Shown here one piece after another: positions 388 to 62,472 of a DNA stretch of 64,000 nucleotides. The translations under genes were made by a program, and so were the position numbers. The stretch comes from a virus (lineage: Duplodnaviria > Heunggongvirae > Uroviricota > Caudoviricetes): the IMG/VR virus record IMGVR_UViG_3300031867_000016, positions 27,293 through 91,292 of that record. The stretch is one strand, 5' to 3'. The notes below the pieces were generated by a model. It saw only the letters and a program-made list of their open reading frames with translations. It was not told the DNA's origin and did not search any database. Position 1 is the stretch's first letter. Every line of letters begins with the position of its first letter.

Positions 388-456
388 ATGCAGAATGCGT
401 CAGGCAGTTGCTGCGTGCAAGTCGTGGCTTCTGCATAATAATGGAGTGTGATACTT

Positions 457-27112: not shown

Positions 27113-27370
27113 TTACGCTTCCTCATCATATGGCGGTAACTCAGGAGGTTCAGCCCAGTATGATATATATGTTTCGTAGTATCCATATTCATCGTCCCAT
27201 ACATACCAGCCTGGTCGTTTCTCATCTCGAAATTCATATGGATCAACTTCACTTAAATCCAAAGCAAAACTTATAACACGAAGACTTTGGTAGCCGTGAC
27301 TGTTTCTTACAGTAAGATATTGTTTGCTCTCAGTTGGTTGATGCTCACTTGCTTTTTTCCATTCAAACAT
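27113..27370 (-). CDS. hypothetical protein
   Basis: 85-aa ORF with aromatic/acidic composition. Confidence 0.45.
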   Translation of the reverse strand: MFEWKKASEHQPTESKQYLTVRNSHGYQSLRVISFALDLSEVDPYEFRDEKRPGWYVWDDEYGYYETYISYWAEPPELPPYDEEA

Positions 27371-46509: not shown

Positions 46510-46527
46510 TATTACTCCCCCCCTTTT

Positions 46528-46851
46528 TTACATTGGTGTATTAGAATAAGAAGAAAGATCTTTGGTGGAATATAAACGGCACTCATAGCTGGATGTTTCA
46601 TAATCAGTAATAATAACAATACAATAATCTTCATTCGTATTTGAAAAACCAGAGCTGTATAAAGATCCATTTCCAAATACATCTTCCCTTCGTGAGTTTA
46701 AAAAACCTGTAAAAGCTTTATTTAATACAATATCGCATGATTCATCACCAGTTAATACGAGACGTAAACTATCTATATTTTCAGGATCTTCCTGAAAATT
46801 GTCGGTGAAAGGTATCTCAAGATATAAATTTGAGGCTGCCATTTTTATCAC
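46528..46851 (-). CDS. hypothetical structural protein
   Basis: 107-aa ORF. Confidence 0.4.
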   Translation of the reverse strand: MIKMAASNLYLEIPFTDNFQEDPENIDSLRLVLTGDESCDIVLNKAFTGFLNSRREDVFGNGSLYSSGFSNTNEDYCIVIITDYETSSYECRLYSTKDLSSYSNTPM

Positions 46852-46852
46852 C

Positions 46853-47047
46853 TCAATTTACAATTGGTAATGGAATATCAATTGTTGTTTCATTTTTTGC
46901 AATAGTATCCCAACCAATTTCGTAATATCCATAATCTTGCTGTTCTTGGTATTCACCATTAACATTTATATAAGCAGTTCCACTTGGTTCGTTTGTATTT
47001 TTAGAAAGTTTTGCATTAATTAATTGTTGATAATTTATTTGTCTCAC
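46853..47047 (-). CDS. hypothetical protein
   Basis: 64-aa ORF. Confidence 0.35.
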   Translation of the reverse strand: MRQINYQQLINAKLSKNTNEPSGTAYINVNGEYQEQQDYGYYEIGWDTIAKNETTIDIPLPIVN

Positions 47048-47721
47048 AGAAGACCGCCTCCTCCGCTACCTGTATTCTTTATTAAAATATAAGTATCTTG
47101 CACAACTGGCTGCCCTGAATATAATTCCATAGTATTGTCATCAGTTATGATATAGTAATCATAAGTATTTGTACTATACGATGATAACGTTTCAATAACA
47201 CCGCCATATTCTACTTGCTTCTGTTCGACTTGTTCGTTAGCAGCCCAATATGTTACCGTATACGTCCTTACTGTTTCATTCCATACGGCATACAGGTTCC
47301 TGTCAGCAGTAATATTTTTCTTTGCATTAGCATCAACTGCTCCACCATTAGTTCTCGACCAGCCAGCAAATGTATAAGTTTTATCTACTGTTGGTTCCTT
47401 TGTAGGCGTCTCATTCCATGTAGCGTTCTGTCCGCTGGTCCATATCGACTCCGTATGAAGCCATTCATCGCCGTCGTAGTAGTCAACATCAAACCAGGTG
47501 TCACCTTTTTTAACAATTAGAGAACCTTCATCATCAATATATAATTTGAAATATTTATTACTGTTTGGTGTACATGACTTTACTGTTAAGAAGTCAACCG
47601 TATCTGAGCCAACAGACCAGTTGCGGAATATCTTGTCTTTAAAATAATGCAATACGGTATTGGAACCATTCTGTATTGCAACATGATCGTAATCATTTCC
47701 AGTTGTAACAGCCATCATCAA
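47044..47721 (-). CDS. Listeria-Bacteroides repeat (Flg_new-like) domain protein
   Basis: 225 aa; contains YTFAGWSRTNGG…YAVW. ATGA overlap with the upstream gene. Confidence 0.5.
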   Translation of the reverse strand: MMMAVTTGNDYDHVAIQNGSNTVLHYFKDKIFRNWSVGSDTVDFLTVKSCTPNSNKYFKLYIDDEGSLIVKKGDTWFDVDYYDGDEWLHTESIWTSGQNATWNETPTKEPTVDKTYTFAGWSRTNGGAVDANAKKNITADRNLYAVWNETVRTYTVTYWAANEQVEQKQVEYGGVIETLSSYSTNTYDYYIITDDNTMELYSGQPVVQDTYILIKNTGSGGGGLL

Positions 47722-50105
47722 CCACCACCTTTTATATAATTTGCGCTTGTGCTGAAAAGGTTTGCCAGATCTGTCTGTTCAACCCATGCACCATTCACTT
47801 TTTTGTATACAGCAGTACAAGCCTGCCACGAACCTCCGACTTTGAGGAACAGCTGATCACTCGGATCTCCAGCACTGGCAAACGCATAAACAGTATGTGC
47901 AGATGTGATGTTTTCAATTGTATAAACATAGTTTACTATCTGGTTTCCCTGTTTATCTGTTCCTTCTACAAGCTGCAGTGAGCTTGTTTTATCTGTACTG
48001 TTATCTGTCAGAGTAACAGTTGCGTTCACATCATCTGGAATAATTGTTACACTGTAGTTCTGTCCCGGCAGCTTAACAACTTGACCGTCTGGATAAATCT
48101 TGCCGCCGCTGATCGATGATGTCACAAAATAGTACTCAACATCGCCAAAGATAAAGATCAGACTGTGCTTCTGATTGATATTGGAGAGTGTATATGTGTA
48201 GTCTCCGCCAGCGGACGTTGCTTCTATAGATGCAACCTTCCACTGTAGACTGTCATTGTTACCGTTAGATGCGTCATCTTTGCCGTACTTGATATCAATG
48301 AAGTGTTCGCCAGCCGGCACATTGTAGCTTATCGTCTGAGCACTGGAACTGTTGGATGCCATGGCAAGTTCGTAATTGCTTGTGCTGTCGGATGGAGCAG
48401 AACGATTTTGGCCTGCTGTAAGTCCGTCTGTTGCAACTTCCACATCAAGCTTGCCAAACAAACCGTAGTCGTAGCTTGCTTCTGCATAGTTGATATACTG
48501 TATTGTAACAATACAGCTGCTTTCAAAGTTCATATTCAGTCTTGCAACAGAAGCTGTTTTGCTTACGCCATTATTCGATGACACGTAATAACCAGTCGAA
48601 GAGTTTAGATTAAAACCGTAGCTGGCTCCATCGACTTTTGTTGTCACGGTATAGGTATTAGTCGGTGTACCACCTACAAGCTGGCTTGTAATATCAACAC
48701 CATTGTCAAGAGCAAGTGTAAGCTGCGGATCAGTAGGGGAGATCGTAATTGTTTTGTTTGTTCCTTCCTGAACACGCGTTGTTCCATTCTTTGGATCAGT
48801 CGTAGCGTTTATGCTTGACACAGTAACCGAATAATAATTATATGTCGGATCTTCGTCTGGCGGCACGAATGCGCCAGCCTGCTCAACTGTAACAGCATGG
48901 TCGGTAGAAACATTATTCAACGTATAAAGCCAGTAATAATTGCTGCCATGGTTTGGAATAGTATAAGTTACTGTCCACGTAATACCTGTAACAAGACCGC
49001 CGTAATAGCCAATTGTAAAACCAATACATGGATCATCCTTTAATTCTTCGACCGTCCATGTACCTGGAGATATTGTCAGTATGCTGCTCGAACTTGAAGT
49101 AAAAGATTTCTCAGATCCTTTTGATACTGTGCCTGAATATGTATTGACTTTTGCGACCTCGCTTGACTGTGACGCATTTTCAAGATGACCGAGTACCTTA
49201 ACTGTCATACTGCTGATGACGGCATCATCAGGTATTTCACTGAAGTTAAAGTGATAAAAGATCGTTGCAGTTGAACCGCTTGAACCGCAATAGTCATTGC
49301 CTGTCTGAGATGAAGGGTTGTCAACAGTACATCCAACAGTACTTCTGTATCTCGTACCACTGACTGAACCAGATACGGTATATGATTCAGCTGCTTTTGA
49401 CAGCGTTCCGCCGCTTGGTATTTCATGTCTTGTAAGTTCACTCGTAACATCAGCATCATTGTCTTTGACAACGACATCATCTAATGTATTTGTGTAGACT
49501 TTTACCGATACGTTTTCGCCTTCCATCGGTTCCTGTGCAATCGGCTCCACTGTTACACCATCGACTTCCGATGTTGCAGTTACTGTGTACTGCATACCCT
49601 GAATTGCATAGGTTATTGAAAGAGTTGCGCCGTAGAAATACATATAAGCGGCACGAGATGTGTTGCTCGTGCCGCGATGCGCAGTGTATCGAATCTGAAT
49701 ATCATCAATTTCAGAACGAGTCCAGGAACCTGGAGTCAGCGTATAAGAAGACGCACTCGTTGTTCTTGCACTTGTTGCACTGCCTTTGGCTGTAGAGTCA
49801 GAATATAGCTGAACATTCGCGCTTGATATGTACGACGTTGAACTGACTCGTACTTTTGCAGTACATGCAACAGCAGTTATTGTTGCGTTATGTGGAATCT
49901 CAGATGTATCGAATGTATATGAGATATACGACGTTGCATTCGAACCAGTATTACAGGCAATATATGCAAACGAAGTAGAAGAAGCATCAGTATAACCGTT
50001 TGATATAGGATAGCTGCTGTTTACCGAAGAGTAAGAGGAGTTAACAGAACTGTACCCGGAAGGAACCAGTCTGAGAGTATCCGATACATTAATTTCCTGA
50101 GCCAT
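47718..50105 (-). CDS. large β-rich structural protein (tail fibre/receptor-binding candidate)
   Basis: 795 aa, Ser/Thr/Gly/Tyr-rich, with no catalytic motif recognised. Confidence 0.5.
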   Translation of the reverse strand: MAQEINVSDTLRLVPSGYSSVNSSYSSVNSSYPISNGYTDASSTSFAYIACNTGSNATSYISYTFDTSEIPHNATITAVACTAKVRVSSTSYISSANVQLYSDSTAKGSATSARTTSASSYTLTPGSWTRSEIDDIQIRYTAHRGTSNTSRAAYMYFYGATLSITYAIQGMQYTVTATSEVDGVTVEPIAQEPMEGENVSVKVYTNTLDDVVVKDNDADVTSELTRHEIPSGGTLSKAAESYTVSGSVSGTRYRSTVGCTVDNPSSQTGNDYCGSSGSTATIFYHFNFSEIPDDAVISSMTVKVLGHLENASQSSEVAKVNTYSGTVSKGSEKSFTSSSSSILTISPGTWTVEELKDDPCIGFTIGYYGGLVTGITWTVTYTIPNHGSNYYWLYTLNNVSTDHAVTVEQAGAFVPPDEDPTYNYYSVTVSSINATTDPKNGTTRVQEGTNKTITISPTDPQLTLALDNGVDITSQLVGGTPTNTYTVTTKVDGASYGFNLNSSTGYYVSSNNGVSKTASVARLNMNFESSCIVTIQYINYAEASYDYGLFGKLDVEVATDGLTAGQNRSAPSDSTSNYELAMASNSSSAQTISYNVPAGEHFIDIKYGKDDASNGNNDSLQWKVASIEATSAGGDYTYTLSNINQKHSLIFIFGDVEYYFVTSSISGGKIYPDGQVVKLPGQNYSVTIIPDDVNATVTLTDNSTDKTSSLQLVEGTDKQGNQIVNYVYTIENITSAHTVYAFASAGDPSDQLFLKVGGSWQACTAVYKKVNGAWVEQTDLANLFSTSANYIKGGG

Positions 50106-50117
50106 CTGTTATCCCCC

Positions 50118-51203
50118 TTATCTGATCTGTAAATAGATGTCTCCGTTATTTCCAAGCGTGCTTGCCGGCACGGAAGAACCTGTATAATACTTCTGTACAA
50201 CGAGAGAACCTGTTACTTTTGAACCGTTCACATAGGCTGTCTTACCGCTGACCACATCAGCGGCAGCAGCCGTAGCATCGCTTGTGTAAGTGCCGGTCAC
50301 ATTAAAGATGTTGACACCTTTCTTAATGTTTGCAGCAGTCAGATCTGCATCACCGGCAATTGTCTGTGCTCCAGTAAGATATGTCCCGGCTGCAATTGTC
50401 TGGTTGCTTGTGCCAGGCGTAATCGTAGCCGCAGCCTTTGTTGTCACTGACGCTGTCAGAGAAACATTACTGTTGCCGGCTGTGCCTGCACTGATATAAC
50501 CAGCAGTCGAAACATTCGGTGTAACTGAAATACTCTTTGTCAAGGTAAGCGTATTTGTTCCAGTGGTAACAGAAGCAGACGTTCCAGAGATGGATGACGG
50601 AGCTGTCACTTTTCCATTGGGAGTCGCGCTTATTGTGTAATGTGCTTTTGTAGAATTGTACCCTGTCGGGATATTGATATATTGAGCAGATGTACTTCTG
50701 CTAATAGTTGCTTTCGAAGTGGAACCAGAAGCAGCACTGGTTGCTGCTGCCGTTGGCAAAGTCATTGAAGACATTGCATTAATCTGTACAGAACTCAGGC
50801 CGTCATAACCACTGTCTGGTCTGATCGTCTGAGAAGAAGTCGAAGGTGAAATTCCAGTCTTTGCCTGAAGCTTTGGAGTACTTGATGTGTTTACGTTGAC
50901 TGTCACAGAACTGTAACCATCATATCCATCGCTTGACGCATTGTAAGTTCCATTTGCTGTGACAGTTTTTGCTCCAAGCACTGCGCTGCTTCCGCCACTG
51001 CCACCACCAGATTCACCTGTTGTTATCGTCATATAAGTAGAGTTGTCGACAACTTCAACTGGATCTGGCAGATTGGCTGAGGGGTCTGCCCATGCCCCAT
51101 CTGCTCTTAAAAAAGTGCTTGTATTATTTGTTAATGCAGGAATGCGATCATCTTTCAAATTGTATGTCGTATTATTTACATGGATCTTTTTAATATCAGC
51201 CAT
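50118..51203 (-). CDS. tail-fibre cassette protein with shared N-terminal module (MADIKKIHVNNTTYNLKDDRIPALTN…FLR.DG.W)
   Basis: 361 aa. The N-terminal ~45 aa are shared with 51344..51544, 51556..51744 and 51744..52907. Confidence 0.55.
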   Translation of the reverse strand: MADIKKIHVNNTTYNLKDDRIPALTNNTSTFLRADGAWADPSANLPDPVEVVDNSTYMTITTGESGGGSGGSSAVLGAKTVTANGTYNASSDGYDGYSSVTVNVNTSSTPKLQAKTGISPSTSSQTIRPDSGYDGLSSVQINAMSSMTLPTAAATSAASGSTSKATISRSTSAQYINIPTGYNSTKAHYTISATPNGKVTAPSSISGTSASVTTGTNTLTLTKSISVTPNVSTAGYISAGTAGNSNVSLTASVTTKAAATITPGTSNQTIAAGTYLTGAQTIAGDADLTAANIKKGVNIFNVTGTYTSDATAAAADVVSGKTAYVNGSKVTGSLVVQKYYTGSSVPASTLGNNGDIYLQIR

Positions 51204-51343
51204 ATGATCACACCTTATTTAGGAATAATAACAAGCAGATGATCATAGTCATTTCCAGATGTAATAGCCATCATCAACCACCACCTTTGTATAATGTTAT
51301 ATTTGCCGGCTCAACCATAAGCTGCTGCGTCATAACCGCAACC

Positions 51344-51544
51344 TCAACTTGGTTTGTTTATTGTTATTGTCAAGTATGTAGAATTATCCACAACTTCAAC
51401 AGGAGAGGGTTGTCCTTCCATTGGATTTGCCCATGTGCCATCATCTCTGAGGAAGGTATTTCCTTCATTCGTCAGAGCCGGAATGCGATCATCTTTTAAA
51501 TTGTATGTTATATCATTTACTTGAATCTTTTTTATATCAGCCAT
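51344..51544 (-). CDS. truncated duplicate of the 50118..51203 fibre gene (N-terminal module plus ~20 aa, then stop)
   Basis: 66 aa, near-identical to the N-terminus of the 50118..51203 protein through VEVVDNSTY. It is flanked by ~55-nt direct repeats. Confidence 0.4.
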   Translation of the reverse strand: MADIKKIQVNDITYNLKDDRIPALTNEGNTFLRDDGTWANPMEGQPSPVEVVDNSTYLTITINKPS

Positions 51545-51555
51545 ATGATCACACC

Positions 51556-51744
51556 TTATCCAGGCATAATAACAAGCAAATGATCATCGTTGTCGACAAA
51601 TTGAACGCCTTCGTCAAAAGTGGGGACAGACCATTGTCCGTCCCCACGTAAAAACGCAGTTGTTGAGTTCGTCATGTTCGGAACTCTGTAGTCTTTGATG
51701 TCATAAGTTGTATTATTTACCTTAATATGAGAGATATCTGCCAT
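51556..51744 (-). CDS. stand-alone copy of the fibre N-terminal module (62 aa)
   Basis: MADISHIKVNNTTYDIKDYRVPNMTN…FLRGDGQWS… The C-terminal DDHLLVIMPG* is repeated as a remnant peptide at ~51240-51300. Confidence 0.4.
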   Translation of the reverse strand: MADISHIKVNNTTYDIKDYRVPNMTNSTTAFLRGDGQWSVPTFDEGVQFVDNDDHLLVIMPG

Positions 51745-52907
51745 TAGGATACAGTAATGGTGGCAGAAGTACCGGTAAATGTTGGCTGAGAAACAGTACC
51801 GGCTGGAGTGCCAGACACGCTGACGTTAACTTCGTCACCAGTAAATTCAGGCTGAGATACATTGCCGACAGGAGTGAACTTGCCGGTAGAATTGAGAGCA
51901 GTACCAGCAAACTTGAGGTTGACTCCAGTACCAGAGAAGGTGGGCTGAGAAACAGTACCAGCTGGGGTACCAGAGACGCTCACATTGCCCTCGCTGCCAT
52001 TGAATTCAAGATCAACACCTGTGCCAGTAAAGCTTGGCTGACTGGAAGTTGCGCTCTTAATGCCGGTAGTAATAACCTGGCTTGCGAATGTAGGCATGGT
52101 AACCTTCGTAGGAACGTTCGCTGTGAAAGCTCCTTCGTCCCATGTGATGGTCAGTACTTCGTTTTCAACTGTCGTATGCAGTTCAGGAAGTGTGCATGCT
52201 GCAGGCGTACCGGCTGTAGCAGAACCACCACCAGTCGTAGAAGCTGCGACATACTTGGTAGCAGTGTTTGGTGTAACGGTGATCGTAGGAACGCTAACTG
52301 TTCCAGCAGGAGTATAATTCTTGGTGCCAGATCCAACAGTGATGCCGCCAGCAGGAGTGAAGCTGCCCGTGGAAGTCAGAGCTGTACCGCTGAACGTGGG
52401 CTGAGAGATCGTGCCAGCAGGAGTATAGTTGGCAGTGCCTGTGCCAACAGAGATCGTACCGGCAGGAGTACCAGAAACATTCACATTGCCTTCAGTACCT
52501 GTAAAGGTTGGCTTGGAAACAGTACCAGTTGCTGTCACCGCGCCAGTGGAAGTCATTGCTTTGCCGGTGAACGTAGGCTGAGAAACAGTACCAGCAGGCT
52601 TATAAGAAGCAGAAGCGGTGTCCTTGTAGGCAAGTGCACCAAGAGTTGTGGTGTCACCGATCTCATGCCACTTATTGTCAGTCGTGGAATAAATGAATTC
52701 CTTGTTACCGTTGATGACGATACCGCCATTGACAGCATTCTTTTCTGTTCCGCTGATGGTAACCTTGCCAGTCGTTGCGCCATCGCTAAGCGTTGTAGAA
52801 GTCACGCCAAGGAATGTAGTACCGCCAGCAATAAGTTCTCGTGCTACCGCGTCCTTAATGTCATATGTAGTACCAGAGGGTAATGTAATTTTGCTAATTT
52901 CTGCCAT
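51744..52907 (-). CDS. tail-fibre cassette protein with the shared N-terminal module and internal ~20-aa tandem repeats (GTPAGTVSQPTF(T/S)GT…)
   Basis: 387 aa, Thr/Gly/Ser-rich with a periodic PTFTG motif. Confidence 0.55.
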   Translation of the reverse strand: MAEISKITLPSGTTYDIKDAVARELIAGGTTFLGVTSTTLSDGATTGKVTISGTEKNAVNGGIVINGNKEFIYSTTDNKWHEIGDTTTLGALAYKDTASASYKPAGTVSQPTFTGKAMTSTGAVTATGTVSKPTFTGTEGNVNVSGTPAGTISVGTGTANYTPAGTISQPTFSGTALTSTGSFTPAGGITVGSGTKNYTPAGTVSVPTITVTPNTATKYVAASTTGGGSATAGTPAACTLPELHTTVENEVLTITWDEGAFTANVPTKVTMPTFASQVITTGIKSATSSQPSFTGTGVDLEFNGSEGNVSVSGTPAGTVSQPTFSGTGVNLKFAGTALNSTGKFTPVGNVSQPEFTGDEVNVSVSGTPAGTVSQPTFTGTSATITVS

Positions 52908-52924
52908 AATGAATCATCCCTTTT

Positions 52925-53296
52925 TTAATTTCGTGTAAATATAAGCTCTTCTCCGTTCGTATCGTAGTTGAGCTTTGCATTCCAAAATAAGCGATCAGCA
53001 CTTGAGACATGGACTTCTTTGTTGTTGATGTGATCATCCAGTCTTGCAGCCAGTGCTTGAACCTCGCTGTCTCTAATGAACGGGAGGTCCACGATAGGGA
53101 CGCTCCCGTCTCCAATTTTTAATGTGCTGGTGTCGGTGTACAAGCAGAATTCGCCCTTCTTCGGTACGTATCCTGGTTTGTCTGCCCAGCCGCTTGATGT
53201 ATTTTCAGATACGATGTCCGCCTTTTCCGAGAGCAATGCTTTTATCTTGCTCCATGTGTAAAGCAGGCCATCGGAATCAAGAAATCTAGCACTCAT
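52925..53296 (-). CDS. FLDSDGLLY-family fibre/adaptor protein, member 1
   Basis: 123 aa. The N-terminus (MSARFLDSDGLLYTWSKIKALLSEK) is shared with 53330..53896. Confidence 0.5.
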   Translation of the reverse strand: MSARFLDSDGLLYTWSKIKALLSEKADIVSENTSSGWADKPGYVPKKGEFCLYTDTSTLKIGDGSVPIVDLPFIRDSEVQALAARLDDHINNKEVHVSSADRLFWNAKLNYDTNGEELIFTRN

Positions 53297-53329
53297 GATA
53301 ACATCGCCTCGAAAAATAGTTTGGTTTTA

Positions 53330-53896
53330 TCAGGTGGCAAATATTGCATCGATCTCAGTATTCGTCATCGTTTCAACTGCAAACGAACCGCCGAGTGCAT
53401 CCCAGGCCGTACCGGTCCATGCATAGTTCATGCCGTCAGCTTCAACGTTATACACGTCACCGTTTTCGGCATTGGAAGGAAGCAGAGTCATATTAGCAAC
53501 GCTTCCCTTGTACACATATGCATTAACAACATCAGACTTCAGCACGTAATTGGATGCAGAAGAGAATGCATCAAGCTTTGCTTTATCAGTAGAACTCATA
53601 AGACCAGAATCGGAACTGGTAGCATCTTCATAAACAGGAACTCTAGCACTGAGTGTTCCGTCATTTGTGATAGAAAGGTTATCACCGACAATGATACCGC
53701 CAAGACTGCTGGAACTTGCAGGCACAAGCGTAAAGTCACCCTCACTGAGGTTGGCAAGCTTCTGCTTTTCAGCATCGGTGAAGTCGTTCGTAGAAAGCTG
53801 CTTACCTTCTACTGCGTCTACTTTCTTCGAAAGAGCCGTCTTAATTTTGTTCCACACATAGAGTAAACCATCTGAGTCAAGAAATTTTTTGCTCAT
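53330..53896 (-). CDS. FLDSDGLLY-family fibre/adaptor protein, member 2
   Basis: 188 aa; N-terminus MSKKFLDSDGLLYVWNKIKTALSKK. Confidence 0.5.
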   Translation of the reverse strand: MSKKFLDSDGLLYVWNKIKTALSKKVDAVEGKQLSTNDFTDAEKQKLANLSEGDFTLVPASSSSLGGIIVGDNLSITNDGTLSARVPVYEDATSSDSGLMSSTDKAKLDAFSSASNYVLKSDVVNAYVYKGSVANMTLLPSNAENGDVYNVEADGMNYAWTGTAWDALGGSFAVETMTNTEIDAIFAT

Positions 53897-54186
53897 GTTA
53901 ACATCTCCTCAAGTTCAAAATTGGTTAATGTGGGAAGTCCTGCTGGATCGCAGGAGCAGGAACCAGAAGAAGATGAAGATGAGTTCGCTTTTACTTCCTG
54001 CCAAACACAGTCTGTGTCCAGCACGTAGATCTTGCTTCTGTCCGCAGTATATGCAACAGAACCGCAAGAGTAATCTGAAACATCAAGCGAGTTTACATCC
54101 TCATTTTCTCCAAGCATAATTTCATACTGTCCGCTTGTAACAGGTCTTCCGTTTATTTTTATGACTTTCATAGGTATCACCACCAT
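53893..54186 (-). CDS. hypothetical protein
   Basis: 97-aa ORF. ATGA overlap with the downstream gene. Confidence 0.4.
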   Translation of the reverse strand: MVVIPMKVIKINGRPVTSGQYEIMLGENEDVNSLDVSDYSCGSVAYTADRSKIYVLDTDCVWQEVKANSSSSSSGSCSCDPAGLPTLTNFELEEMLT

Positions 54187-54662
54187 AATTTATAACGAGG
54201 CTCTTCTTCGTCAAACAGCCGCCATCTGAGCCAGTCGTCTAAATAGATAGCCGCCATAGATAAAGGCATCCATAGCAGTATAAACTGCGGACAGATTTGC
54301 CCTAATATGTTCATCGGTAAATGGGAGTAATCCCAGACATTGAGTCCAAGCCAGATGTTCAGTACGCATCCAGATATAAACTCAACCATGGTTATTATCG
54401 TCGTACCGATAAGTATCTGCAGCCAGACAGGCATATCCCAGTCGATATATTCATTAATGCCTCCGACTGCAAGGAATGCCGCACCGCCGACGAGCACCAT
54501 GAGAGGGCTCGCCGGCTTGTGCGAAACAAATAGTTTAAACAATAACTCACATAACATGTATGCAGAACCGCCAAATAAAAACAGTAGAATGTTTTTACGC
54601 ACTCTGCTGCTCCAGATAATACAGTACATCAGACTGATATTCTGCCGGTATTTCGTCACCAT
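54177..54662 (-). CDS. polytopic membrane protein (≈4 TM) inside the fibre block
   Basis: 161-aa ORF. The 5' end overlaps the upstream gene by ~70 nt, so the true start is probably an internal ATG. Confidence 0.4.
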   Translation of the reverse strand: MVTKYRQNISLMYCIIWSSRVRKNILLFLFGGSAYMLCELLFKLFVSHKPASPLMVLVGGAAFLAVGGINEYIDWDMPVWLQILIGTTIITMVEFISGCVLNIWLGLNVWDYSHLPMNILGQICPQFILLWMPLSMAAIYLDDWLRWRLFDEEEPRYKLWW

Positions 54663-55347
54663 AATTGACTGCCAGCAGTTCGGCTTTGGTCTGCATTGAT
54701 TTAATCCAGTTCTTTAAGCTGTTAAAGTAAGTCGTGTTATAGGTCTTATAGGCTGCAGCAGCCTGTAAAATAGTATTAATGTCACTGACCGAATAGTATG
54801 TGCAAAGTTCTCCGTCTGCGTGATAGGGGACAACTCCATCAGACTGGAAGTTCTGCAGAGAAATAAGATTGATCTGATCTTCAAGAGTCAAAGCGAAATG
54901 TTTCGTGCTGCCATCAGACAGCTTTACATCTACGCCTGATTCAATTGCTTTGTTACATGCCTTTGACATAGCTGATATAACAAACGTCCTGATCTCTTCG
55001 AGTTCATGATCATCTTCGATGACTTCTTCGACAGGTTCCTCATGAACAATGGCATTTTCAGCATCTACTGTACCGCCGAGATCCATGATCTTTCGAATCT
55101 CTTCTGCTTCTTCATCCTCAATCTTCGATACGATAACATCTTTATCGTATCTGTCTGCATCTTTTTTACCATTAATATGATATGTAAGAGTATCATCTGA
55201 AGACAGAATTCCAGTCGCCATGTTTGCACCGCATGAAACAATAAGATCGTTGTAAACATAAAGCCAGATCGGCTTGTCTATAAGATCAATGACAGTATTA
55301 TTTTCTACAATTTTGTACTTCATAATACGTCTTTCCTTTTTCGCCAA
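54595..55347 (-). CDS. hypothetical acidic protein
   Basis: 250-aa ORF. The true start is probably MKYKIVENN…. Confidence 0.45.
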   Translation of the reverse strand: MAKKERRIMKYKIVENNTVIDLIDKPIWLYVYNDLIVSCGANMATGILSSDDTLTYHINGKKDADRYDKDVIVSKIEDEEAEEIRKIMDLGGTVDAENAIVHEEPVEEVIEDDHELEEIRTFVISAMSKACNKAIESGVDVKLSDGSTKHFALTLEDQINLISLQNFQSDGVVPYHADGELCTYYSVSDINTILQAAAAYKTYNTTYFNSLKNWIKSMQTKAELLAVNYGDEIPAEYQSDVLYYLEQQSA

Positions 55348-55371
55348 GGCGGCTTTTACTGCCGCCTTGGC
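55343..55371. terminator. 11-bp GC-rich hairpin downstream of the giant fibre gene (putative terminator/RNA-stabilising stem)
   Basis: gccaaggcggc-ttttact-gccgccttggc. A T-run is present on the + strand only. Confidence 0.4.
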
Positions 55372-55377
55372 TTAATA

Positions 55378-58300
55378 TTAAATTGCAAAACCGAAACAGA
55401 AACCATTTGTTGTATTGTTTGCATGTGATGACCAGTTATTTCCTGCGTAACCATAATAATACACTTCAAGGAAGTCCGTAGATCTTCTGTCATCATTATT
55501 ATTTGATGTATTAATGTAAGTGCTTGGAGTTCTAAGCCACCAATATGCATTAGAGCTGTCACCAAGTTTTGTTTTTGTTCTCGAAGTATTGCCATTGAAA
55601 TAACTGATTCGTCCCTGACATTCCTGATTTGTCCAACTCATAGTTTCTGTAGAGCTTACCGATACAATTTCAGCATAAGAAGGTATGAACACATAGTCGG
55701 AACTTTCATAAACTGTATTTGTATTTCCAGAACCAGGACAGCTTTTTATCTGCACCTGTGACATAATGGCACGCCATGCTGGATCAAAGCAATAATAAAT
55801 TCTTTCATTTAGATACCGTCTCATTAACGTGTCTCTCCAGCCGCCAACGTTTGTGCTTGCTGCGTTCATCACGCAGCTGCTAGAGAACAGTTCTTTGGAA
55901 TACAAGTTAAGCCCGGCGTAATTAGTAGAGCCAGTCTTCTGATACATACGGAAATTAGTATTCGAATTACTGTCAACGAGGCCACTGGCAATGAATGTAT
56001 ATACTTCGTGAGGCCAGCATGCAAGCTTTTTGCAAGCTGTATCACCAAGATCGCCTTCCCAGTATTTCATTTTATACACTTTGCCAGCCGCGAGGTTGCC
56101 TTCATGACCATCTGAAACATAATATCTACAGCCAACAGCAAGCTCTGAGTTATTAATGATTGCAGCATCTCTCGATATACTGCCAGTTCGAATATCAAAA
56201 CTGCCGTTGGTCGTTATATCTCTTGTATCTGCAGAATAAATATATAAAGTTGGATCTCCAAGTATATGTCTTATTACTACAATATCTCTTCCTGTAAGGT
56301 TATTATTATTGGATTTCAGATTGAAAGAATCTCCACCAAATTCTATGCGTGGACCATTTATTGTCTGTACAAGGGCAAATCCGTCTGACTCGTTTGTACA
56401 AGACACAAGAGTTGCCTTGCCTGATGTATCAGTCTGATCGAAATTGTAATCGATCATAAGTGTAAACGGCTTGTCTTTATCAAACAGATTGATATCTGTT
56501 TTGATAATATTGGTAGTGTCATTGCCGTTAAACGTAACCGTATCAGCAACAATTTCATGACTTGTAACGTTTGCATAATCAAGATCGCAGCCCATAGATA
56601 TCTGTGTTGTGTCTCCGCTCTTTATCATTTCGTAATAAGCAGCAGAAGTTCTATCGGAGTTTCGACCACCGTTACTTGCAAGTATCCCGGCTTTACCCAT
56701 TGCATAGATCTGCATAGGAGTCATGTCGGCAAACGGAGTACCGCTGGCTGGAACCTTTCCTTCGTACCATGTCGGATACACGTCAATATTTTCTACAACA
56801 CTGCCGGTACTCTTATCCCAGTCTTTAAACAGGCGATATGTGCCAGTGGAATCTCCAGTAGTATTCGTAGGAATTTCTTTTTCATATATGGCTTCTTCGC
56901 CATAATCGTATTCGCCTTCCTGGAGAAGCGTAGTTCCGTTGAACCATCTTACTTTATACTTCTTTGCCTTTTGGCTATACACAGCTTTATACGATTCATT
57001 TTCGTTGCCTACGGCTGTTATCGGTCTATCCCAGCCTACAAATGTATATTCTGCTACGTTTGTTTCTGGTCTTGTCGGCGTATCAATAAGCTTATCTTTG
57101 ACAGGATCAAGAGGAGTATCTCCCTGGCTCAACGACTGTTCATTCAGCGTGCTGTCATCCCAGTCGAGGAACGTAACAAGACGTTCTTCTTCTGGTTCGT
57201 TACGATAATTAATAACAAGTTCGTCGCCATATGCTTCATGAAGCTTTGAGAGGAGAGTAGAACCAATACTGTCAACAGCGATTGTGCCAGTAATAATTGG
57301 ATAAGCAGTAGAACCCTGAGGCTTGTTGCCATTCTCGTCAACATATTTGCCTTTGAGTGTCAGCAGTTTCTTAAGGAAAGCTGTATCAGAACCAAGATCG
57401 GCATTAACACCAGTCAATCTGATATTTTCAAGCTGATCAATAAGCTGAGTACCATTTTCTTCGTCCACTACTGTTGTGAGAAGTCCGATGCTGTCAATGA
57501 TCGGAGTATTCTCTACGATAAATGTTTTTACGTTGTTGAGCGAAGCATATTTAAAGGTCTTGAGCTTCGTCATATTTTTAAAGACGATAGAGGACGGCGA
57601 AGTAATATCAAGTGTTTCAAGAATGCAGCCATCAGCAAAGTTGAAACCTGATATCTTTGGTGTGTTAGAAGCATACACTTCTTTGAGATATGGATTCTTA
57701 GTGAAGTCGATAACACCCTGAAGATTCACACATCCAGAAATATTAATCTTTTCAAGGAGAATGTTGTTCGTAACATTAACAGCTTCAAGAGATTCGTTCA
57801 TATATCCTTCTTCAGAAGAACCGATTGTAATAGTTTTCAGTCTTGTAGCTGCAGATATATCAAGGTTCCACGGATAGAACTTAGAGATATCACCAAGTTC
57901 AACAATATCAGACGCACCATGAATACTGACTGTATCAGAAGTACCAAGACCCTTATTATATCTGATGGTTGTTTTCTCGTTGGCATCGAGAATGTCGGAG
58001 CTTACAGTAACCTTTGAGTCGCCATAGCTTACAGACATACGCATTTTCTGCACGGGTCTTAATTCGATTGCAGTGTTCTTCATCGAAATATCTTTGCCAG
58101 GTCTGAAGAAGATATAGCTGTTTAAGAACTGATCGCAAAGATATTTGCTGTACAAAAGATGTGAACGCTTATACATAAACGATTCCTTCTGTTCAGTTCT
58201 TGAACCTCTCTGAAGATATTTATATTTTGATGTATAAACATAAGGCTTCTTTTCATCTGAGTAATCAATATATCCTTTTGTTATAGGATCTTCATACTTG

Positions 58301-61300
58301 TATTCCATGTCTCGGTTTATAACTGACGGACATACAAGATCTGCGTTATCTTCAATGTGAGTCTTATGAAGTGTTGCATAGCTCAAATAACCTATACCAT
58401 TTGACTGTCTGGTTAAAGTCTTTGCTCTTTCGGCGATTTCAGAAGCAAATGCTTCTTCAAACATCTTCCAAAACACACTGTCGTGACCAGAGAAAACATA
58501 GCTGTCTTCGCTTTCGCTCGTGTGGTAATCCCAGTCTGCATAATAAGGTATATTCAAACGACCTGTATTATTCACGCCAAAGCATGAGTCGAGGTCGTAT
58601 AGATCGGCGTACCATATAGCAAATGTAGAATTGTTCCAGTCAATAGCATCGACATTTAAACTGCCATCGTCTTTTCTGATTTCAGCAATAGATGTCGCAC
58701 CGTTTGTGAATTTAATATCCTCTACAGTAACATCCTTACAGCTCAGGAACATATTCTTTGCTCTGTTATCGCACAGACAAACAAATTCCATAAACAGATA
58801 ATACACAAGAGCATGTTCAAGGTTTAAATGCTTTGTAAATTCTTCCTTGAAGATCTTTTTCTTTGCTTCGCGTGTTGCGTTGTCTGTTGCTTCCCAGAAA
58901 TTAGCACGCTGGCATATCCACGTGTACAATACATGAATGTAATCATAATTCGGAGTAAGGTTATCGTCTTCAAGATCGCCTTCATCGGGGTAGCATGATT
59001 CCAGTCCGTGCTTTACATTAAGAATATTGTTACCTTTTTCATCCTTAATCATTTCATAGAATTTATCGGACTTGAATTTGCAGATATCACTGGAATTGGT
59101 TTTGAACTCCCATTTCTGCTGCTTGGTGACGTTGCCTTTGTCTCCTGCTGTTTTTAAACCAAAGCTTTCAACGTTGCCTTTATCATTGTTAAGACAGCCG
59201 TCGCCGGCAAAGGTAAAGTCACTGTCACTGTATGCTTCGTTAAGGAAGTCTTCGCCCTTGTATTTGCTCAGCGGCATATTGAATAACAGGCAGCGGAAAC
59301 CATACACCGTATTCTGAACAAGCGAACCTGGCTGTTTATCGTTGAACAGCGTATCAGCAATGTTTGCGTTGAAAGTATTTGCATGGTCTGTAGACATGTA
59401 GTCGATCTTGTAACAGAGAGTTGACTCTGGCACAGATTTCGCAGTACCGTCTGCATTAAGACCTTTCAGTGCATACTTTATTTTCTTTTTCACTTCGCTT
59501 GTTTTACCTTCATCATCAGTTACAGTCTTCACTTTGCCTTCTTCATCACGATCATACTTTGCAAGCTTGACTTTGTAATTCTTTCTGATGTACTGCTGCG
59601 AGCTTGTTCCTTGTACGTTATTGATGCAGGCAAATACATTGCTGTCATCCATATCAAGGCATGAGAATTCAGTTGTAAAGCCACCGTTATTATCTGGTTT
59701 TGTCAGTACAGCTCCGCATGGCTGTTCATCGCCCTTATAACCAGACAAATTACCGATGAGAAGCAGACATGGATACTTGTAAATTGCTTTCCGATAAGAG
59801 ACATCGTTGTTGACGATCATGTCATTGTAGGCGTTCTGCGCCAGTCTTTCCTTGATGTCAGTAGAAGAGTTCATGTAGTTCTGAAGAACTTCTTCATCTG
59901 TAAGATCACGGTTGTACATGCGTATATCATACAGCTTTGTAATACAGCCGTTGGAACCAATAACAATTGCAGCTTTTCCATCATAATCCATGCCAGTAGA
60001 CGGATACAGATAGGAGTTTGCATATTCACCATTCACAAAAACATTGACACACTGTGTTTCATGCTCTGCGCCTGGTATTATTTTCTGAACAACGAAGCTG
60101 ATTCTGAGTCTCTTTTCATCTTTGAGATAAGCGCATGGAATATCACTTTCGTTGTGGATGAAGCCATCTTCATCAAGTTCAAGTTCCTGTCCTTTTGCCA
60201 GCAGATAACATACCTGAGGATTGATAACAAACTGTGCACCATTATCGGAAATGTATTCAACGACATTTTCAGACTCGTCTGTTACGTTGTTCATCGACAG
60301 TTCGATTTCAATCGTTCTGCCTGTGGTTGTAACATGAGCATTCGTGCTGCTGTCAAGTGCAACAGTTTTTCCATCTTTATTCTCAAAAGAAGAATACAGA
60401 ATTGGAAGATCAATTGTCATACGTGCATCGCCTGAGAGTGTAAGAGCACCAGACTCAAGATAACCATCAGATGCCCAGTTAAAACCAGTCATGTCAGCAT
60501 ATATGTTTACAGCTTTTTCTGTACCTTTATTGAGAGTGTAGACATATGTTTCCTTGCCAACGCTGTCATTCTTAATACCAATCGGCTTATACGAATACAC
60601 GAGTCCTGTTTCAATCTGGTTTGTTTCATATTTCTGTGCTACAGCTTCAACATTGAAGTCCATATAGGCTGTACCGTTTTCATCGCTTGTAACAAGACGA
60701 ACAACTGCAGCACCAGATGCTGGATATGTGTCTTCTGAAAGCTCCAGCGTTTCCATTCTGTTGCATCTGATATTAGTAGATACATCACTGTAATACGTTG
60801 GTACAAACACGCCGTTGGCGTTGAGCTCGCCAACGGCGATGTTCAACTTGGACATTCTTTCTTTTCCCGGAGCGTAAACCACATAGTGAATGACCAGTTT
60901 ATCTCCATATTTGATATTGCTGTTTTCGAGATATGCACCAACCATTTCGTCTGTGTTGCCAGATTCATCATCGTAAAGGATAGGAAATACGACACGATTG
61001 GATTCAGTTGCATCATCTGAAACATAATACAGAGTCGCAGTATGTGCGCCATAAGACAGCTTCGATGAATCAATCAACAGCTGGTTATTTTTGTTATGAT
61101 CCTTACCGATGTTTGCAGAAATAACAGGAGTCTTATTATCATCGAGAAGCAAATACACAGTCTTATTAATGTCGTTTCCTATAGGAATATAAGGAATCGG
61201 AACATCGCCTCTGTACAAAGATGACGAATCAAAAGAAGTAGAGATGCTCATCTCTACACATGTCACATAATAGTCAATGTAAGCAGTCTTTGTTTTTGTC

Positions 61301-62472
61301 TTCCCGTCTTCATTGACTTCGGTATTTACTTCTACATGGAAAACCGTGATGTTACCGGGCGTAAGGTAATCAGATACATCGAGTGTCTGCTGTACTCCGC
61401 TTGCTATCTCTTCGTTATTGCTGATCATTTTATAATTGGCATCCTGCGAACCTTTATACGACACAGAGAGATAACCATTCTGGTTGATAACCGTAGAGCC
61501 GAAGTACAAATAATACGTATAAGACAGAGTGCATTTTGAATTCTGCGTTGTCTTTATTCTTGTCGATGAAGAATTGTTCTGCAGCATGACACTGTATACA
61601 GGAACGCCGCTTCCGCCGCCGCCAGTCAGTGTAATCGCTGCTGTTTCCTCATCATTTGCTTTCTTGAACTTCAACTCGTGCGTGCTCTCATTATATGTAT
61701 AGCTTACAAAACCATTTGCAGCATCAGACGCTGCCAGCTGTACAGCAACGTTAATGTCATCGATGGCATTGTTAATCTTCTGAATCGTATTTCTTGGTTC
61801 AGTAAGACCAATGTTGGAGTTTGTTGCAAGAGTAGAAAGATCAATATTCTGCCCACCGGTTGACGCATCCTCGATCATGTCTTCGACCTGAGTCGTGGTC
61901 ACATATGTATCCTGGGCTTCAGTCTTCGTAAGATAACCTTCGGCATCCGTCTTGGAAACATAGGTAGATTCAGCATCAGTCTTGGAGAGGTAGTTTGCAT
62001 CTGCATCGGTCTTGTTTATATAGGTTTCAGCAGCAGCTGTTGCCGTGAGGTAATCGTTGTCAGCAGATGCAACATTTTCAAGAGCAGTATCGATCTCTTC
62101 TTTTGTATAGTAATTCGTAAGGTTGACGTTATCCAGCGCCGTGGAAAGCTGATCCTTTGTGGCATAGCCTTCCAGAAGCTGATTCACTTCAGCCTTTGTA
62201 TAGTTATTATTCAAATCAATTGTAACGCTTGATCCTGTAATAGCAGTACCGTCAGACTTCACGAGCTGGAGTACGCCGGTTTCAGAGTTGAACGAGAAGC
62301 CAACGGCTGCTTCGTTGCATTTCGCCTCAAGCGTCTTCAGTTCTGCATCGATCATGTTCATGGCAGAGGTAGCCTCGGTGCCATTCACAAGCGTTCTCCA
62401 TTCGAGAAAAGTCATGACAGTCTCGTCTCTGGATACAAGCGGCAATCTATAATTAGTCGTAAATTGAGCCAT
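55378..62472 (-). CDS. giant tail fibre/host-specificity protein (2364 aa)
   Basis: N-terminal fibre-like heptad-type repeats (NYLSKTDAESTYVSKTDAEGYLTKTEAQDTYV). C-terminal Listeria-Bacteroides repeats (YTFVGWDRP…YKAVY; YRLFKDWDKS…YPTWY). Long β-rich central region. Confidence 0.65.
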   Translation of the reverse strand: MAQFTTNYRLPLVSRDETVMTFLEWRTLVNGTEATSAMNMIDAELKTLEAKCNEAAVGFSFNSETGVLQLVKSDGTAITGSSVTIDLNNNYTKAEVNQLLEGYATKDQLSTALDNVNLTNYYTKEEIDTALENVASADNDYLTATAAAETYINKTDADANYLSKTDAESTYVSKTDAEGYLTKTEAQDTYVTTTQVEDMIEDASTGGQNIDLSTLATNSNIGLTEPRNTIQKINNAIDDINVAVQLAASDAANGFVSYTYNESTHELKFKKANDEETAAITLTGGGGSGVPVYSVMLQNNSSSTRIKTTQNSKCTLSYTYYLYFGSTVINQNGYLSVSYKGSQDANYKMISNNEEIASGVQQTLDVSDYLTPGNITVFHVEVNTEVNEDGKTKTKTAYIDYYVTCVEMSISTSFDSSSLYRGDVPIPYIPIGNDINKTVYLLLDDNKTPVISANIGKDHNKNNQLLIDSSKLSYGAHTATLYYVSDDATESNRVVFPILYDDESGNTDEMVGAYLENSNIKYGDKLVIHYVVYAPGKERMSKLNIAVGELNANGVFVPTYYSDVSTNIRCNRMETLELSEDTYPASGAAVVRLVTSDENGTAYMDFNVEAVAQKYETNQIETGLVYSYKPIGIKNDSVGKETYVYTLNKGTEKAVNIYADMTGFNWASDGYLESGALTLSGDARMTIDLPILYSSFENKDGKTVALDSSTNAHVTTTGRTIEIELSMNNVTDESENVVEYISDNGAQFVINPQVCYLLAKGQELELDEDGFIHNESDIPCAYLKDEKRLRISFVVQKIIPGAEHETQCVNVFVNGEYANSYLYPSTGMDYDGKAAIVIGSNGCITKLYDIRMYNRDLTDEEVLQNYMNSSTDIKERLAQNAYNDMIVNNDVSYRKAIYKYPCLLLIGNLSGYKGDEQPCGAVLTKPDNNGGFTTEFSCLDMDDSNVFACINNVQGTSSQQYIRKNYKVKLAKYDRDEEGKVKTVTDDEGKTSEVKKKIKYALKGLNADGTAKSVPESTLCYKIDYMSTDHANTFNANIADTLFNDKQPGSLVQNTVYGFRCLLFNMPLSKYKGEDFLNEAYSDSDFTFAGDGCLNNDKGNVESFGLKTAGDKGNVTKQQKWEFKTNSSDICKFKSDKFYEMIKDEKGNNILNVKHGLESCYPDEGDLEDDNLTPNYDYIHVLYTWICQRANFWEATDNATREAKKKIFKEEFTKHLNLEHALVYYLFMEFVCLCDNRAKNMFLSCKDVTVEDIKFTNGATSIAEIRKDDGSLNVDAIDWNNSTFAIWYADLYDLDSCFGVNNTGRLNIPYYADWDYHTSESEDSYVFSGHDSVFWKMFEEAFASEIAERAKTLTRQSNGIGYLSYATLHKTHIEDNADLVCPSVINRDMEYKYEDPITKGYIDYSDEKKPYVYTSKYKYLQRGSRTEQKESFMYKRSHLLYSKYLCDQFLNSYIFFRPGKDISMKNTAIELRPVQKMRMSVSYGDSKVTVSSDILDANEKTTIRYNKGLGTSDTVSIHGASDIVELGDISKFYPWNLDISAATRLKTITIGSSEEGYMNESLEAVNVTNNILLEKINISGCVNLQGVIDFTKNPYLKEVYASNTPKISGFNFADGCILETLDITSPSSIVFKNMTKLKTFKYASLNNVKTFIVENTPIIDSIGLLTTVVDEENGTQLIDQLENIRLTGVNADLGSDTAFLKKLLTLKGKYVDENGNKPQGSTAYPIITGTIAVDSIGSTLLSKLHEAYGDELVINYRNEPEEERLVTFLDWDDSTLNEQSLSQGDTPLDPVKDKLIDTPTRPETNVAEYTFVGWDRPITAVGNENESYKAVYSQKAKKYKVRWFNGTTLLQEGEYDYGEEAIYEKEIPTNTTGDSTGTYRLFKDWDKSTGSVVENIDVYPTWYEGKVPASGTPFADMTPMQIYAMGKAGILASNGGRNSDRTSAAYYEMIKSGDTTQISMGCDLDYANVTSHEIVADTVTFNGNDTTNIIKTDINLFDKDKPFTLMIDYNFDQTDTSGKATLVSCTNESDGFALVQTINGPRIEFGGDSFNLKSNNNNLTGRDIVVIRHILGDPTLYIYSADTRDITTNGSFDIRTGSISRDAAIINNSELAVGCRYYVSDGHEGNLAAGKVYKMKYWEGDLGDTACKKLACWPHEVYTFIASGLVDSNSNTNFRMYQKTGSTNYAGLNLYSKELFSSSCVMNAASTNVGGWRDTLMRRYLNERIYYCFDPAWRAIMSQVQIKSCPGSGNTNTVYESSDYVFIPSYAEIVSVSSTETMSWTNQECQGRISYFNGNTSRTKTKLGDSSNAYWWLRTPSTYINTSNNNDDRRSTDFLEVYYYGYAGNNWSSHANNTTNGFCFGFAI

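Follow-up and report, generated by a model that had tools for sequence, protein, structure and literature searches.

Shared N-terminal modules, stand-alone module genes and a chimeric scar in a putative tail-fibre cluster of an uncultivated phage

Gene array and shared modules

The genes described here lie in a window of 64,000 nucleotides (nt), positions 27,293 to 91,292 of the IMG/VR record IMGVR_UViG_3300031867_000016, from an uncultivated phage of the Caudoviricetes with a genome of ~113 kb. They form an array of putative tail-fibre genes with shared N-terminal modules, all on the minus strand, whose order from 5' to 3' is G1, G2, A, B, C, a short chimeric open reading frame (ORF) termed the scar, D, E and F (Table 1). 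A preliminary description of this DNA, made from the sequence alone, had placed the array between 50118 and 53896; it reaches further, down to 47044, and includes E and F. The genes abut or overlap (TAATG at A/B, TGATG at E/F) or lie ~11 nt apart with a strong Shine-Dalgarno site, and the C-D spacer measures 140 nt. No terminator-like site stands out inside the array, which reads as one operon. Two ways of joining its products were rejected. Read-through or recoding across A, B and C would have to pass stops (TAA, TAA and TGA) that lie in different frames among genes with their own Shine-Dalgarno sites, and a -1 frameshift fusing E to F would lack a slippery site, 'KGGG*' being the Shine-Dalgarno site of F.

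Table 1. Coordinates of genes, repeats and segments in the array (positions in the window; aa, amino acids)
Feature	Position	Strand	Description
G1	53330..53896	-	188 aa, fibre-like, N-terminal module 2 (MSKKFLDSDGLLYVWNKIK...)
G2	52925..53296	-	123 aa, module 2; motif 'YVPKKGEFCLY...LKIGDG'
A	51744..52907	-	387 aa; first hairpin of module 1 (MAEISKITLPSGTTYDIKD), body of 'GTVSQPTFTG' repeats, C-terminus ...SATITVS
B	51556..51744	-	62 aa, complete stand-alone module 1; start overlaps A stop (TAATG)
C	51344..51544	-	66 aa, complete stand-alone module 1
Scar	51215..51274	-	19-codon chimeric ORF, MMAITSGNDYDH|LLVIIPK*
D	50118..51203	-	361 aa: module 1, GGS linker, repeat-rich body of a very large metagenomic family
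E	47718..50105	-	795 aa, no module 1; travels with D as a cassette
F	47044..47718	-	~224 aa; leader MAVTTGNDYDH, degenerate module (VAIQNGSNTVLHYFKD..FRNW), body; ATG overlaps E stop (TGATG)
Direct repeat, copy 2	51361..51590		B tail, stop, Shine-Dalgarno site, C module; partner of 51020-51249
Direct repeat, copy 1	51020..51249		B-like scar tail, stop, Shine-Dalgarno site, D module
50-nt repeat, left copy	51239..51288		Shine-Dalgarno site AAAGGTGGTGG and first 13 codons of an F-type gene
50-nt repeat, right copy	47683..47732		E end, Shine-Dalgarno site, F start
3.5-kb segment between 50-nt repeats	47733..51238	-	B-like tail, D, E; extra relative to the A-B-C-F layout

Module 1 is a unit of ~62 aa. 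The preliminary description had credited four genes with the same N-terminal module of ~45 aa; three of them (B, C and D) contain it in full, whereas A has only its first hairpin followed by 'TTFL' (positions 1-32 of the profile hidden Markov model (HMM), i-E 1e-4). B covers HMM positions 1-63 (E 2.5e-35) and ends one residue beyond the module. Identity to the first ~62 aa of D is 73% for C and 48% for B. The second N-terminal module that had been proposed for two more genes is also present, with 20 of 29 N-terminal residues identical between G1 and G2 (E 3e-11). A self-comparison of the region further reveals internal repeats in A.

These common N-termini are mounted on unrelated C-terminal bodies both within and between genomes, as the preliminary description had proposed. 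The body of D belongs to a family of more than 4,900 relatives, among which several kinds of N-terminus occur, and module 1 is elsewhere fused to many unrelated bodies of 190-425 aa. An exhaustive profile search recovered 3,492 proteins that match the module at E<=1e-3. They include stand-alone proteins of 62-88 aa, proteins of 190-425 aa in which an N-terminal module is followed by a GGS-type linker and an unrelated body, and giant proteins (e.g. P0145) whose central part repeats the pattern LPxLxxxxxxFLRGDGTWxxP up to 27 times. Pfam does not recognize module 1, a scan of six module-bearing proteins having returned spurious matches only, and neither Pfam nor PHROGs gave a match for A, B, C or E.

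Structural prediction suggests a possible role for the module. The AlphaFold2 (AF2) monomer model of B contains three beta-hairpins, with a low-confidence predicted local distance difference test (pLDDT) score of 58.5. The middle hairpin bears the motif IPx8[FY]LRxDGxW at profile positions 21-39, which matches the T4 foldon (PDB 1rfo) with identical spacing but without significance (E 1.4); AF2 models a hairpin at the foldon-like position of B with pLDDT ~55-64. The foldon is a C-terminal cap, whereas the motif here is found either within an N-terminal module, at residues ~21-39, or as internal repeats. A Foldseek search of the D model against PDB gave no match below E 8, and a phmmer search of the repeat-bearing P0145 against PDB gave nothing relevant. 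The foldon-like trimerizing hairpin is a lead and not a finding, and the most likely, putative role of the module as a whole is trimerization and docking.

Several annotations place the array in the tail or host-recognition module of the phage genome. G1 matches PHROG tail and tail-fibre families (phrog_10588, E 1e-12), contains the fibre motif 'GlmSstDKaKLD' and has a weak FtbO match. G2 has a weak Pfam Mtd_N match at residues 42-65, which scores 24.6 bits against a cut-off of 26.3 and covers a common fibre motif, 'KIGDG'; F has a weak Flg_new match. In the related genome L051 (relatives are given L numbers here), the F-type protein falls in a PHROG 'tail fiber protein' family (E 5e-53) and a Dit-like 'tail protein' is encoded upstream, while in L041 an endolysin with SpoIID, NlpC-P60 and SH3 domains is encoded downstream of the cluster. 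The host is probably Gram-positive, the endolysin type suggesting a member of the Bacillota from rumen or gut. Megablast of positions 46500-54700 against 50,697 phage records gave no match, and tblastn with the 2364-aa protein encoded upstream of the array found only 23-26% identity, to Bacteroides and faecal phages, and no cultured relative.

Repeats, the scar and a candidate crossover

Two pairs of direct repeats mark the array, and both are longer than first described. The repeat flanking C, reported at ~55 nt, extends to 168 nt at 80% identity and a spacing of 341 nt (51082-51249 versus 51423-51590), and in its longest form to the pair listed in Table 1, in which 175 of 230 positions are identical. 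The repeat shared with the start of F, reported at 42 nt, spans 50 nt with 46 identities (92%). Ungapped scores of the repeat pairs (+1/-2) range from 38 to 69, and 30 shuffled versions of the region reached 16 at most. Both the repeats and the common N-termini are real and far above chance.

The scar lies where the two repeat pairs meet. The preliminary description had recognized it as a remnant peptide, MMAITSGNDYDHLLVIIPK*; the peptide exists, although at 51274..51215 and not at ~51240-51300. A three-way alignment of this chimeric ORF resolves its two halves. The left part, AAAGGTGGTGGTTGATGATGGCT...GAYTAYGATCAT, matches the E/F junction, comprising the ribosome site and first 13 codons of F, and the right part, GATCATYTGCTTGTTATTAT..TAAGGTGTGATCATATG, matches the B/C junction, where it takes in the last seven codons of B together with the stop and the ribosome site that follows. 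The two parts meet in GATCAT (51244..51239). The alignment bears out the earlier proposal that the short repeats are recombination junctions. L040 contains the same chimera, and six of the seven substitutions between the two copies are nonsynonymous, so the scar peptide is unconstrained. The 19-codon ORF is the only true, neutrally evolving scar in the array.

The duplications themselves are real, because the window is 100% identical to two contigs from different assemblers (Logan SRR9036512 and ENA ERZ27256863) and because the B-C-scar-D order, scar included, recurs in the independent sample L040 (Logan SRR19524251) at 83-91% nucleotide identity. A short-read mis-join across the repeated module is conceivable where repeats of 50-230 nt share 76-92% identity and every available assembly derives from short reads. 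Nevertheless, mismatches of 8-24% between the repeats are too many for collapse or mis-joining, and neither the agreement of the two assemblers nor the chimeric scar of L040, with substitutions of its own, fits such an artefact, whose probability is negligible and which is effectively refuted already. As little can be said for programmed switching by a diversity-generating retroelement or an invertible fibre segment in place of general recombination. The Mtd_N match in G2 and the presence of several alternative fibre tips side by side invite this idea. That match falls under the Pfam cut-off and covers nothing beyond the common 'KIGDG' motif, however, and no template/variable repeat pair occurs within 44-56 kb, although no whole-window search for a reverse transcriptase was made. 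Inversion of the Mu G, P1 C or shufflon type is hard to reconcile with genes that all share one strand and have individual ribosome sites, and with inverted repeats that reach at best 31 nt at 74% identity. Switching of either kind is thus extremely improbable.

Related phages in metagenomes differ in cassette content, as had been anticipated, and at least four layouts are found. The A-B-C-F layout occurs in L051, L052 and L056, and the A-B-D-E-F layout in L053, L054, L084, L085, L089, L090, L094 and L095. D-like genes directly follow B in the L053/L084 lineage; E is 73% identical over its full length to the L053 protein E793, and L084 has a window-type F (80% identity over the first 45 residues). 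L040 combines the B-C-scar-D order with a D of 423 aa, which includes one extra repeat unit, an unrelated 452-aa protein in the place of E, and an F with 54% identity. Another layout is a fusion, C::F, found in L041-L049, L088, L091 and L093. Between window positions 55398 and 51412, L041-type genomes align collinearly at ~82% identity, after which they jump to 47597. The resulting C::F gene of 245-256 aa joins codons 1-44 of C to the F body from about codon 42. W and DFL are spaced alike in F and in C::F, and F has a degenerate module behind its leader; C::F therefore arose by an in-register crossover of two diverged modules. The fusion drops the last hairpin of C and the leader of F, a loss that would be expected if these two elements normally formed a non-covalent joint.

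Exchange is also visible in the shared backbone, whose identity varies blockwise between 60% and 100%, with maxima at the starts of several genes and across B (95%), as would be expected in a population that recombines. Downstream cassettes differ among the L041, L043 and L045 types. Together, the layouts support cassette exchange, and we infer that cassette layout may affect host range. The F leader is conserved in six lineages, and a back-translated scan of viral contigs for it found only four loci. Within A (51744-52907, minus strand), identity to relatives swings from ~62% to 92%, which indicates fine-scale mosaicism inside single genes.

A single unequal crossover between two variant genomes, one of the type A-B-C-F and the other A-B-D-E-F, would explain both pairs of direct repeats. 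The F head (GNDYDH) of the A-B-C-F genome would have been joined to the B tail (DNDDH) of the A-B-D-E-F genome with GATCAT as the microhomology, and the resulting order A-B-C-[F head|B tail]-D-E-F would bring C and the D-E cassette together. This is the proposed direction of events; the actual parents were not found. An exact-pattern scan of JGI metagenomes for the chimeric scar gave no matches, and a scan of the same metagenomes for the B-tail pattern returned eight loci, all in layouts already known. The hybrid layout is common to two lineages that differ by 10-17% in sequence and is thus old enough to be shared between them. A simple tandem duplication of the 341-nt unit was rejected: an F-head fragment terminates copy 2 but is missing from its partner.

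Stand-alone modules B and C

The preliminary description regarded the array as containing truncated duplicates, with C as a truncated copy of the 361-aa gene D. Neither characterization holds. C is a complete module that ends at the module boundary; both it and B stop exactly where the D module ends and the GGS linker of D begins, and both keep strong Shine-Dalgarno sites. B is maintained as an ORF of 62-63 aa in every architecture class and follows A in all relatives examined, whatever comes next. The ratio of nonsynonymous to synonymous substitution rates (dN/dS) for B is 0.19-0.25 in three pairwise comparisons, close to the 0.11-0.21 of G1, G2 and A (0.11-0.15 for A alone), with an excess of synonymous changes (binomial P = 2e-4 and 3e-4). 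At the nucleotide level, B is 95% identical to its L041 counterpart, compared with 82% for the region. One B orthologue, P0127 (2589-2801 of L093), has lost its stop codon, and its ORF is eight codons longer, passing over the ribosome site and entering the following gene at its start.

C has an orthologue in L040 (P0121), the L041-type C::F fusion begins with a stretch orthologous to codons 1-44 of C, and C-like stand-alone genes are present in L051 and L052. Distant phages repeat the arrangement. In L051, a G2-like gene, an A-like gene and two 65-aa modules precede an 816-aa protein that starts (M)ATTTGNEYDHITIQSGNNQTVHYLKD; L052 follows the same plan, its modules being 66 and 64 aa and the protein behind them 657 aa long. 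In L056, an A-like gene and a 67-aa module are followed by a 2-kb insert and a 727-aa protein with an F-type leader. Between L051 and L052, the proportion of synonymous differences (pS) is 0.68-0.87, which is saturated, and that of nonsynonymous differences (pN) is 0.28-0.33, yet the B-like and C-like ORFs are both intact. Every lineage examined has an A-like gene ahead of its stand-alone modules, and a conserved G2 lies immediately before A in L040, L041, L051, L052 and L056. A profile search finds stand-alone module proteins of 62-70 aa on many contigs. The two marks of a pseudogene, lack of purifying selection and sporadic occurrence, are absent from B and from the B-like and C-like genes of L051 and L052; among these ORFs, only the 19-codon scar shows them. 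In L056, the insert (6416-8151), which separates the stand-alone module from the F-type fibre gene, consists of ~2 kb of unrelated genes, among them one for a 270-aa protein rich in Gly, Asn and Cys.

These observations suggest that B and C, as stand-alone copies of the module, are conserved and expressed genes and not pseudogenes. They probably link A to the distal fibre proteins as small structural adaptors or connectors. A more specific possibility, which we advance tentatively, is that they represent an undescribed class of ~7-kDa 'one-repeat' fibre segments. These would be stand-alone, three-hairpin, foldon-like trimers that link A to proteins with the leader MATTTGxxYDH through non-covalent assembly, either serially or as a branch point. 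Fission and fusion by module crossover (C plus F versus C::F, C versus D) could then add, drop or hard-wire receptor-binding bodies without a redesigned attachment site. If so, the C::F fusion, which lacks exactly the last hairpin of C and the leader of F, would be a Rosetta-stone record of the contact between C and F.

The view closest to the preliminary description, that B and C are decaying, truncated fibre-gene duplicates and functionless by-products of cassette exchange, can draw on the 73% identity of C to the N-terminus of D, with C ending a few codons after the similarity stops. It can also point to truncated receptor-binding proteins (RBPs) in Klebsiella phages, such as a second RBP of 69 aa (PMC6872550), to the lost stop of P0127 and to the motif residues and weak short-range selection on C considered below. 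It is nevertheless rather improbable, since it leaves unexplained the purifying selection on B, the persistence of B as an ORF in every architecture class, the 64-67-aa modules at the same position in phages with saturated synonymous sites, and gene ends that coincide with the module boundary behind strong Shine-Dalgarno sites. Moreover, the true scar that lies beside B and C behaves otherwise and evolves neutrally. A function outside the virion is a further alternative, with B and C as helpers that nucleate fibre trimerization or as competitors that occupy docking sites and so set fibre numbers. Both proteins consist of the putative trimerizing and docking module alone, both genes have fibre genes as neighbours, a common location for the genes of phage fibre chaperones, and purifying selection fits any protein-level function. 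However, B and C match no chaperone family in Pfam or PHROGs, and the C::F fusion, in which the C module heads a fibre body covalently, speaks more for a structural anchor than for a transient helper, making this alternative unlikely.

Overall, we assign a probability of roughly 70% to the reading that the region is part of a tail-fibre or receptor-binding cluster with modular fibres, stand-alone adaptors B and C, and a layout that originated in one crossover. Several observations weigh against it. D and E have no annotated homologues, and their fibre or receptor-binding role is contextual. As for the crossover, A-B-C-F is seen only in distant lineages and A-B-D-E-F only in a lineage that is ~68-77% nucleotide-identical and recodes TAG, while a deletion between the 230-nt repeats could turn the window type into the B-D-E-F order. 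In close comparisons, selection on C does not reach significance (P 0.10-0.25), and some B orthologues are altered in the otherwise invariant DGxW (G>R in P0123, W>L in P0126 and P0129, and also P0128), which hints at relaxed constraint. Finally, the foldon match lacks significance, the AF2 monomer models are of low confidence (pLDDT 65 for D, in addition to the value for B given above), and Foldseek found nothing.

The TAG-recoded lineage (L053, L054, L055, L084, L085, L089, L090, L092, L094 and L095) is related to the window phage and has the A-B-D-E-F layout with many in-frame TAG codons (19 in E, seven in D). At 12 of 23 positions aligned to these codons, the window has Q, encoded by CAG in 11 cases; that lineage therefore reads TAG as glutamine, whereas the window uses the standard code. 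In L053 (8001-9278) and in the same gene of L084, L085, L089, L090, L092, L094 and L095, a conserved TAG follows directly after the D-like module (...GTYMTI*PTGSSSG). Incomplete suppression there would yield a 63-aa stand-alone module together with the full protein, although with seven TAGs in 425 codons the position may be due to chance. Transfer of D-E from this lineage is not claimed: at the amino-acid level, E (73%) is closer to this lineage than A is (51%), but B and D-E are alike in nucleotide identity (68-69%).

Upstream of G1, the minus strand encodes a 2364-aa DUF6273 protein (62472..55378), followed by proteins of 250 aa, 161 aa (a membrane protein) and 97 aa. A near-perfect, GC-rich palindrome between the 2364-aa gene and the next (55332-55382; 22-nt arms, 7 nt apart) resembles a terminator hairpin. 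A membrane protein of the PF06541 family (ABC_trans_CmpB; 54177-54662, minus strand) is encoded within the fibre operon and kept in relatives. Downstream of F lie two small genes, a gene for a 487-aa protein with YadA-head-like repeats, an 89-aa gene and the endolysin. The 487-aa protein (45046-46509, minus strand) is built from 14-aa 'SHAEG' repeats (42-nt period, at least 12 copies), matches the YadA-head repeat (E 3e-7) and phrog_25468 (E 3e-59), has length variants of 572 and 710 aa in relatives, and is probably another fibre or adhesin. Elsewhere in the window, the plus strand has two giant ORFs, 448-16026 (5192 aa) and 17176-22740 (1854 aa).

Comparison with known fibre systems

Shared anchors with swapped tips are the accepted route of host-range change in phages, and in this respect the general picture is ordinary. 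The case is unusually well resolved, as the crossover joint is legible at base level and both parental gene orders exist in nature. The ~62-aa module is a very widespread fibre unit that has so far gone unannotated, with none of its 3,492 proteins represented in Pfam. Its tiny stand-alone copies are conserved genes of a kind that annotation pipelines and readers tend to dismiss as truncations. If these mini-proteins are adaptors, they could offer a compact plug-in handle for fibre engineering in phages of Gram-positive gut and rumen bacteria.

Mosaic recombination at module boundaries is a feature of lambdoid and other tailed phages. The array resembles that mosaicism in having crossovers at gene boundaries or short conserved stretches of diverged genomes and in its sharply varying identity. 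It differs in that the repeated N-terminal module is itself the in-register homeologous target within one operon, which permits both the C::F fusion and the gain of cassettes. The long tail fibre of T4 is assembled serially from gp34, gp35, gp36 and gp37, with consecutive genes encoding consecutive pieces that include small connectors. Consecutive genes and small putative connectors also characterize the array, a likeness that is by analogy only and not by homology. The resemblance to the foldon of T4 fibritin is confined to the pattern of IP, eight residues and [YF][VL]RxDGxW, with the predicted hairpin at that place; the foldon caps a C-terminus, and the motif here is N-terminal or internal and stands in tandem up to 27 times in large proteins.

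Among systems with shared anchors, the RBPs of Klebsiella podophages and myophages (the KP32, KP34, Menlow and phiK64-1 groups) join conserved N-terminal anchors or short docking peptides to unrelated C-terminal bodies (Latka et al. 2019, PMC6872550). These systems include anchor-only or truncated genes, such as the 69-aa second RBP mentioned above and a 347-aa anchor-only first RBP (PMC6872550). The array shares with their anchor-branch organization the adjacent RBP genes, the common N-terminal anchors and a cassette content that varies between close relatives. It differs in several respects. No T4gp10-like branching domain was detected by Pfam or PHROGs in ten proteins scanned, the module being a different, uncharacterized unit of ~62 aa that doubles as a shaft repeat. 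Unlike the sporadic truncations of the Klebsiella phages, the stand-alone copies described here are conserved across distant lineages and under purifying selection, and the host is likely to be Gram-positive.

In phages K1-5, K1E and SP6, tailspikes dock on the adapter gp37 by N-terminal peptides of 7 or 11 residues (PMC6872550). The array recalls this arrangement in its candidate adaptors, which are separate proteins with an attachment function only, and in the N-terminal peptides of its distal proteins, to which the invariant F-type leader MATTTGxxYDH may correspond, its docking role here being putative. In contrast to gp37, which is much larger and belongs to another fold family, the adaptors proposed here are one or two tandem proteins of 62-67 aa that are homologous to the fibre N-termini themselves.

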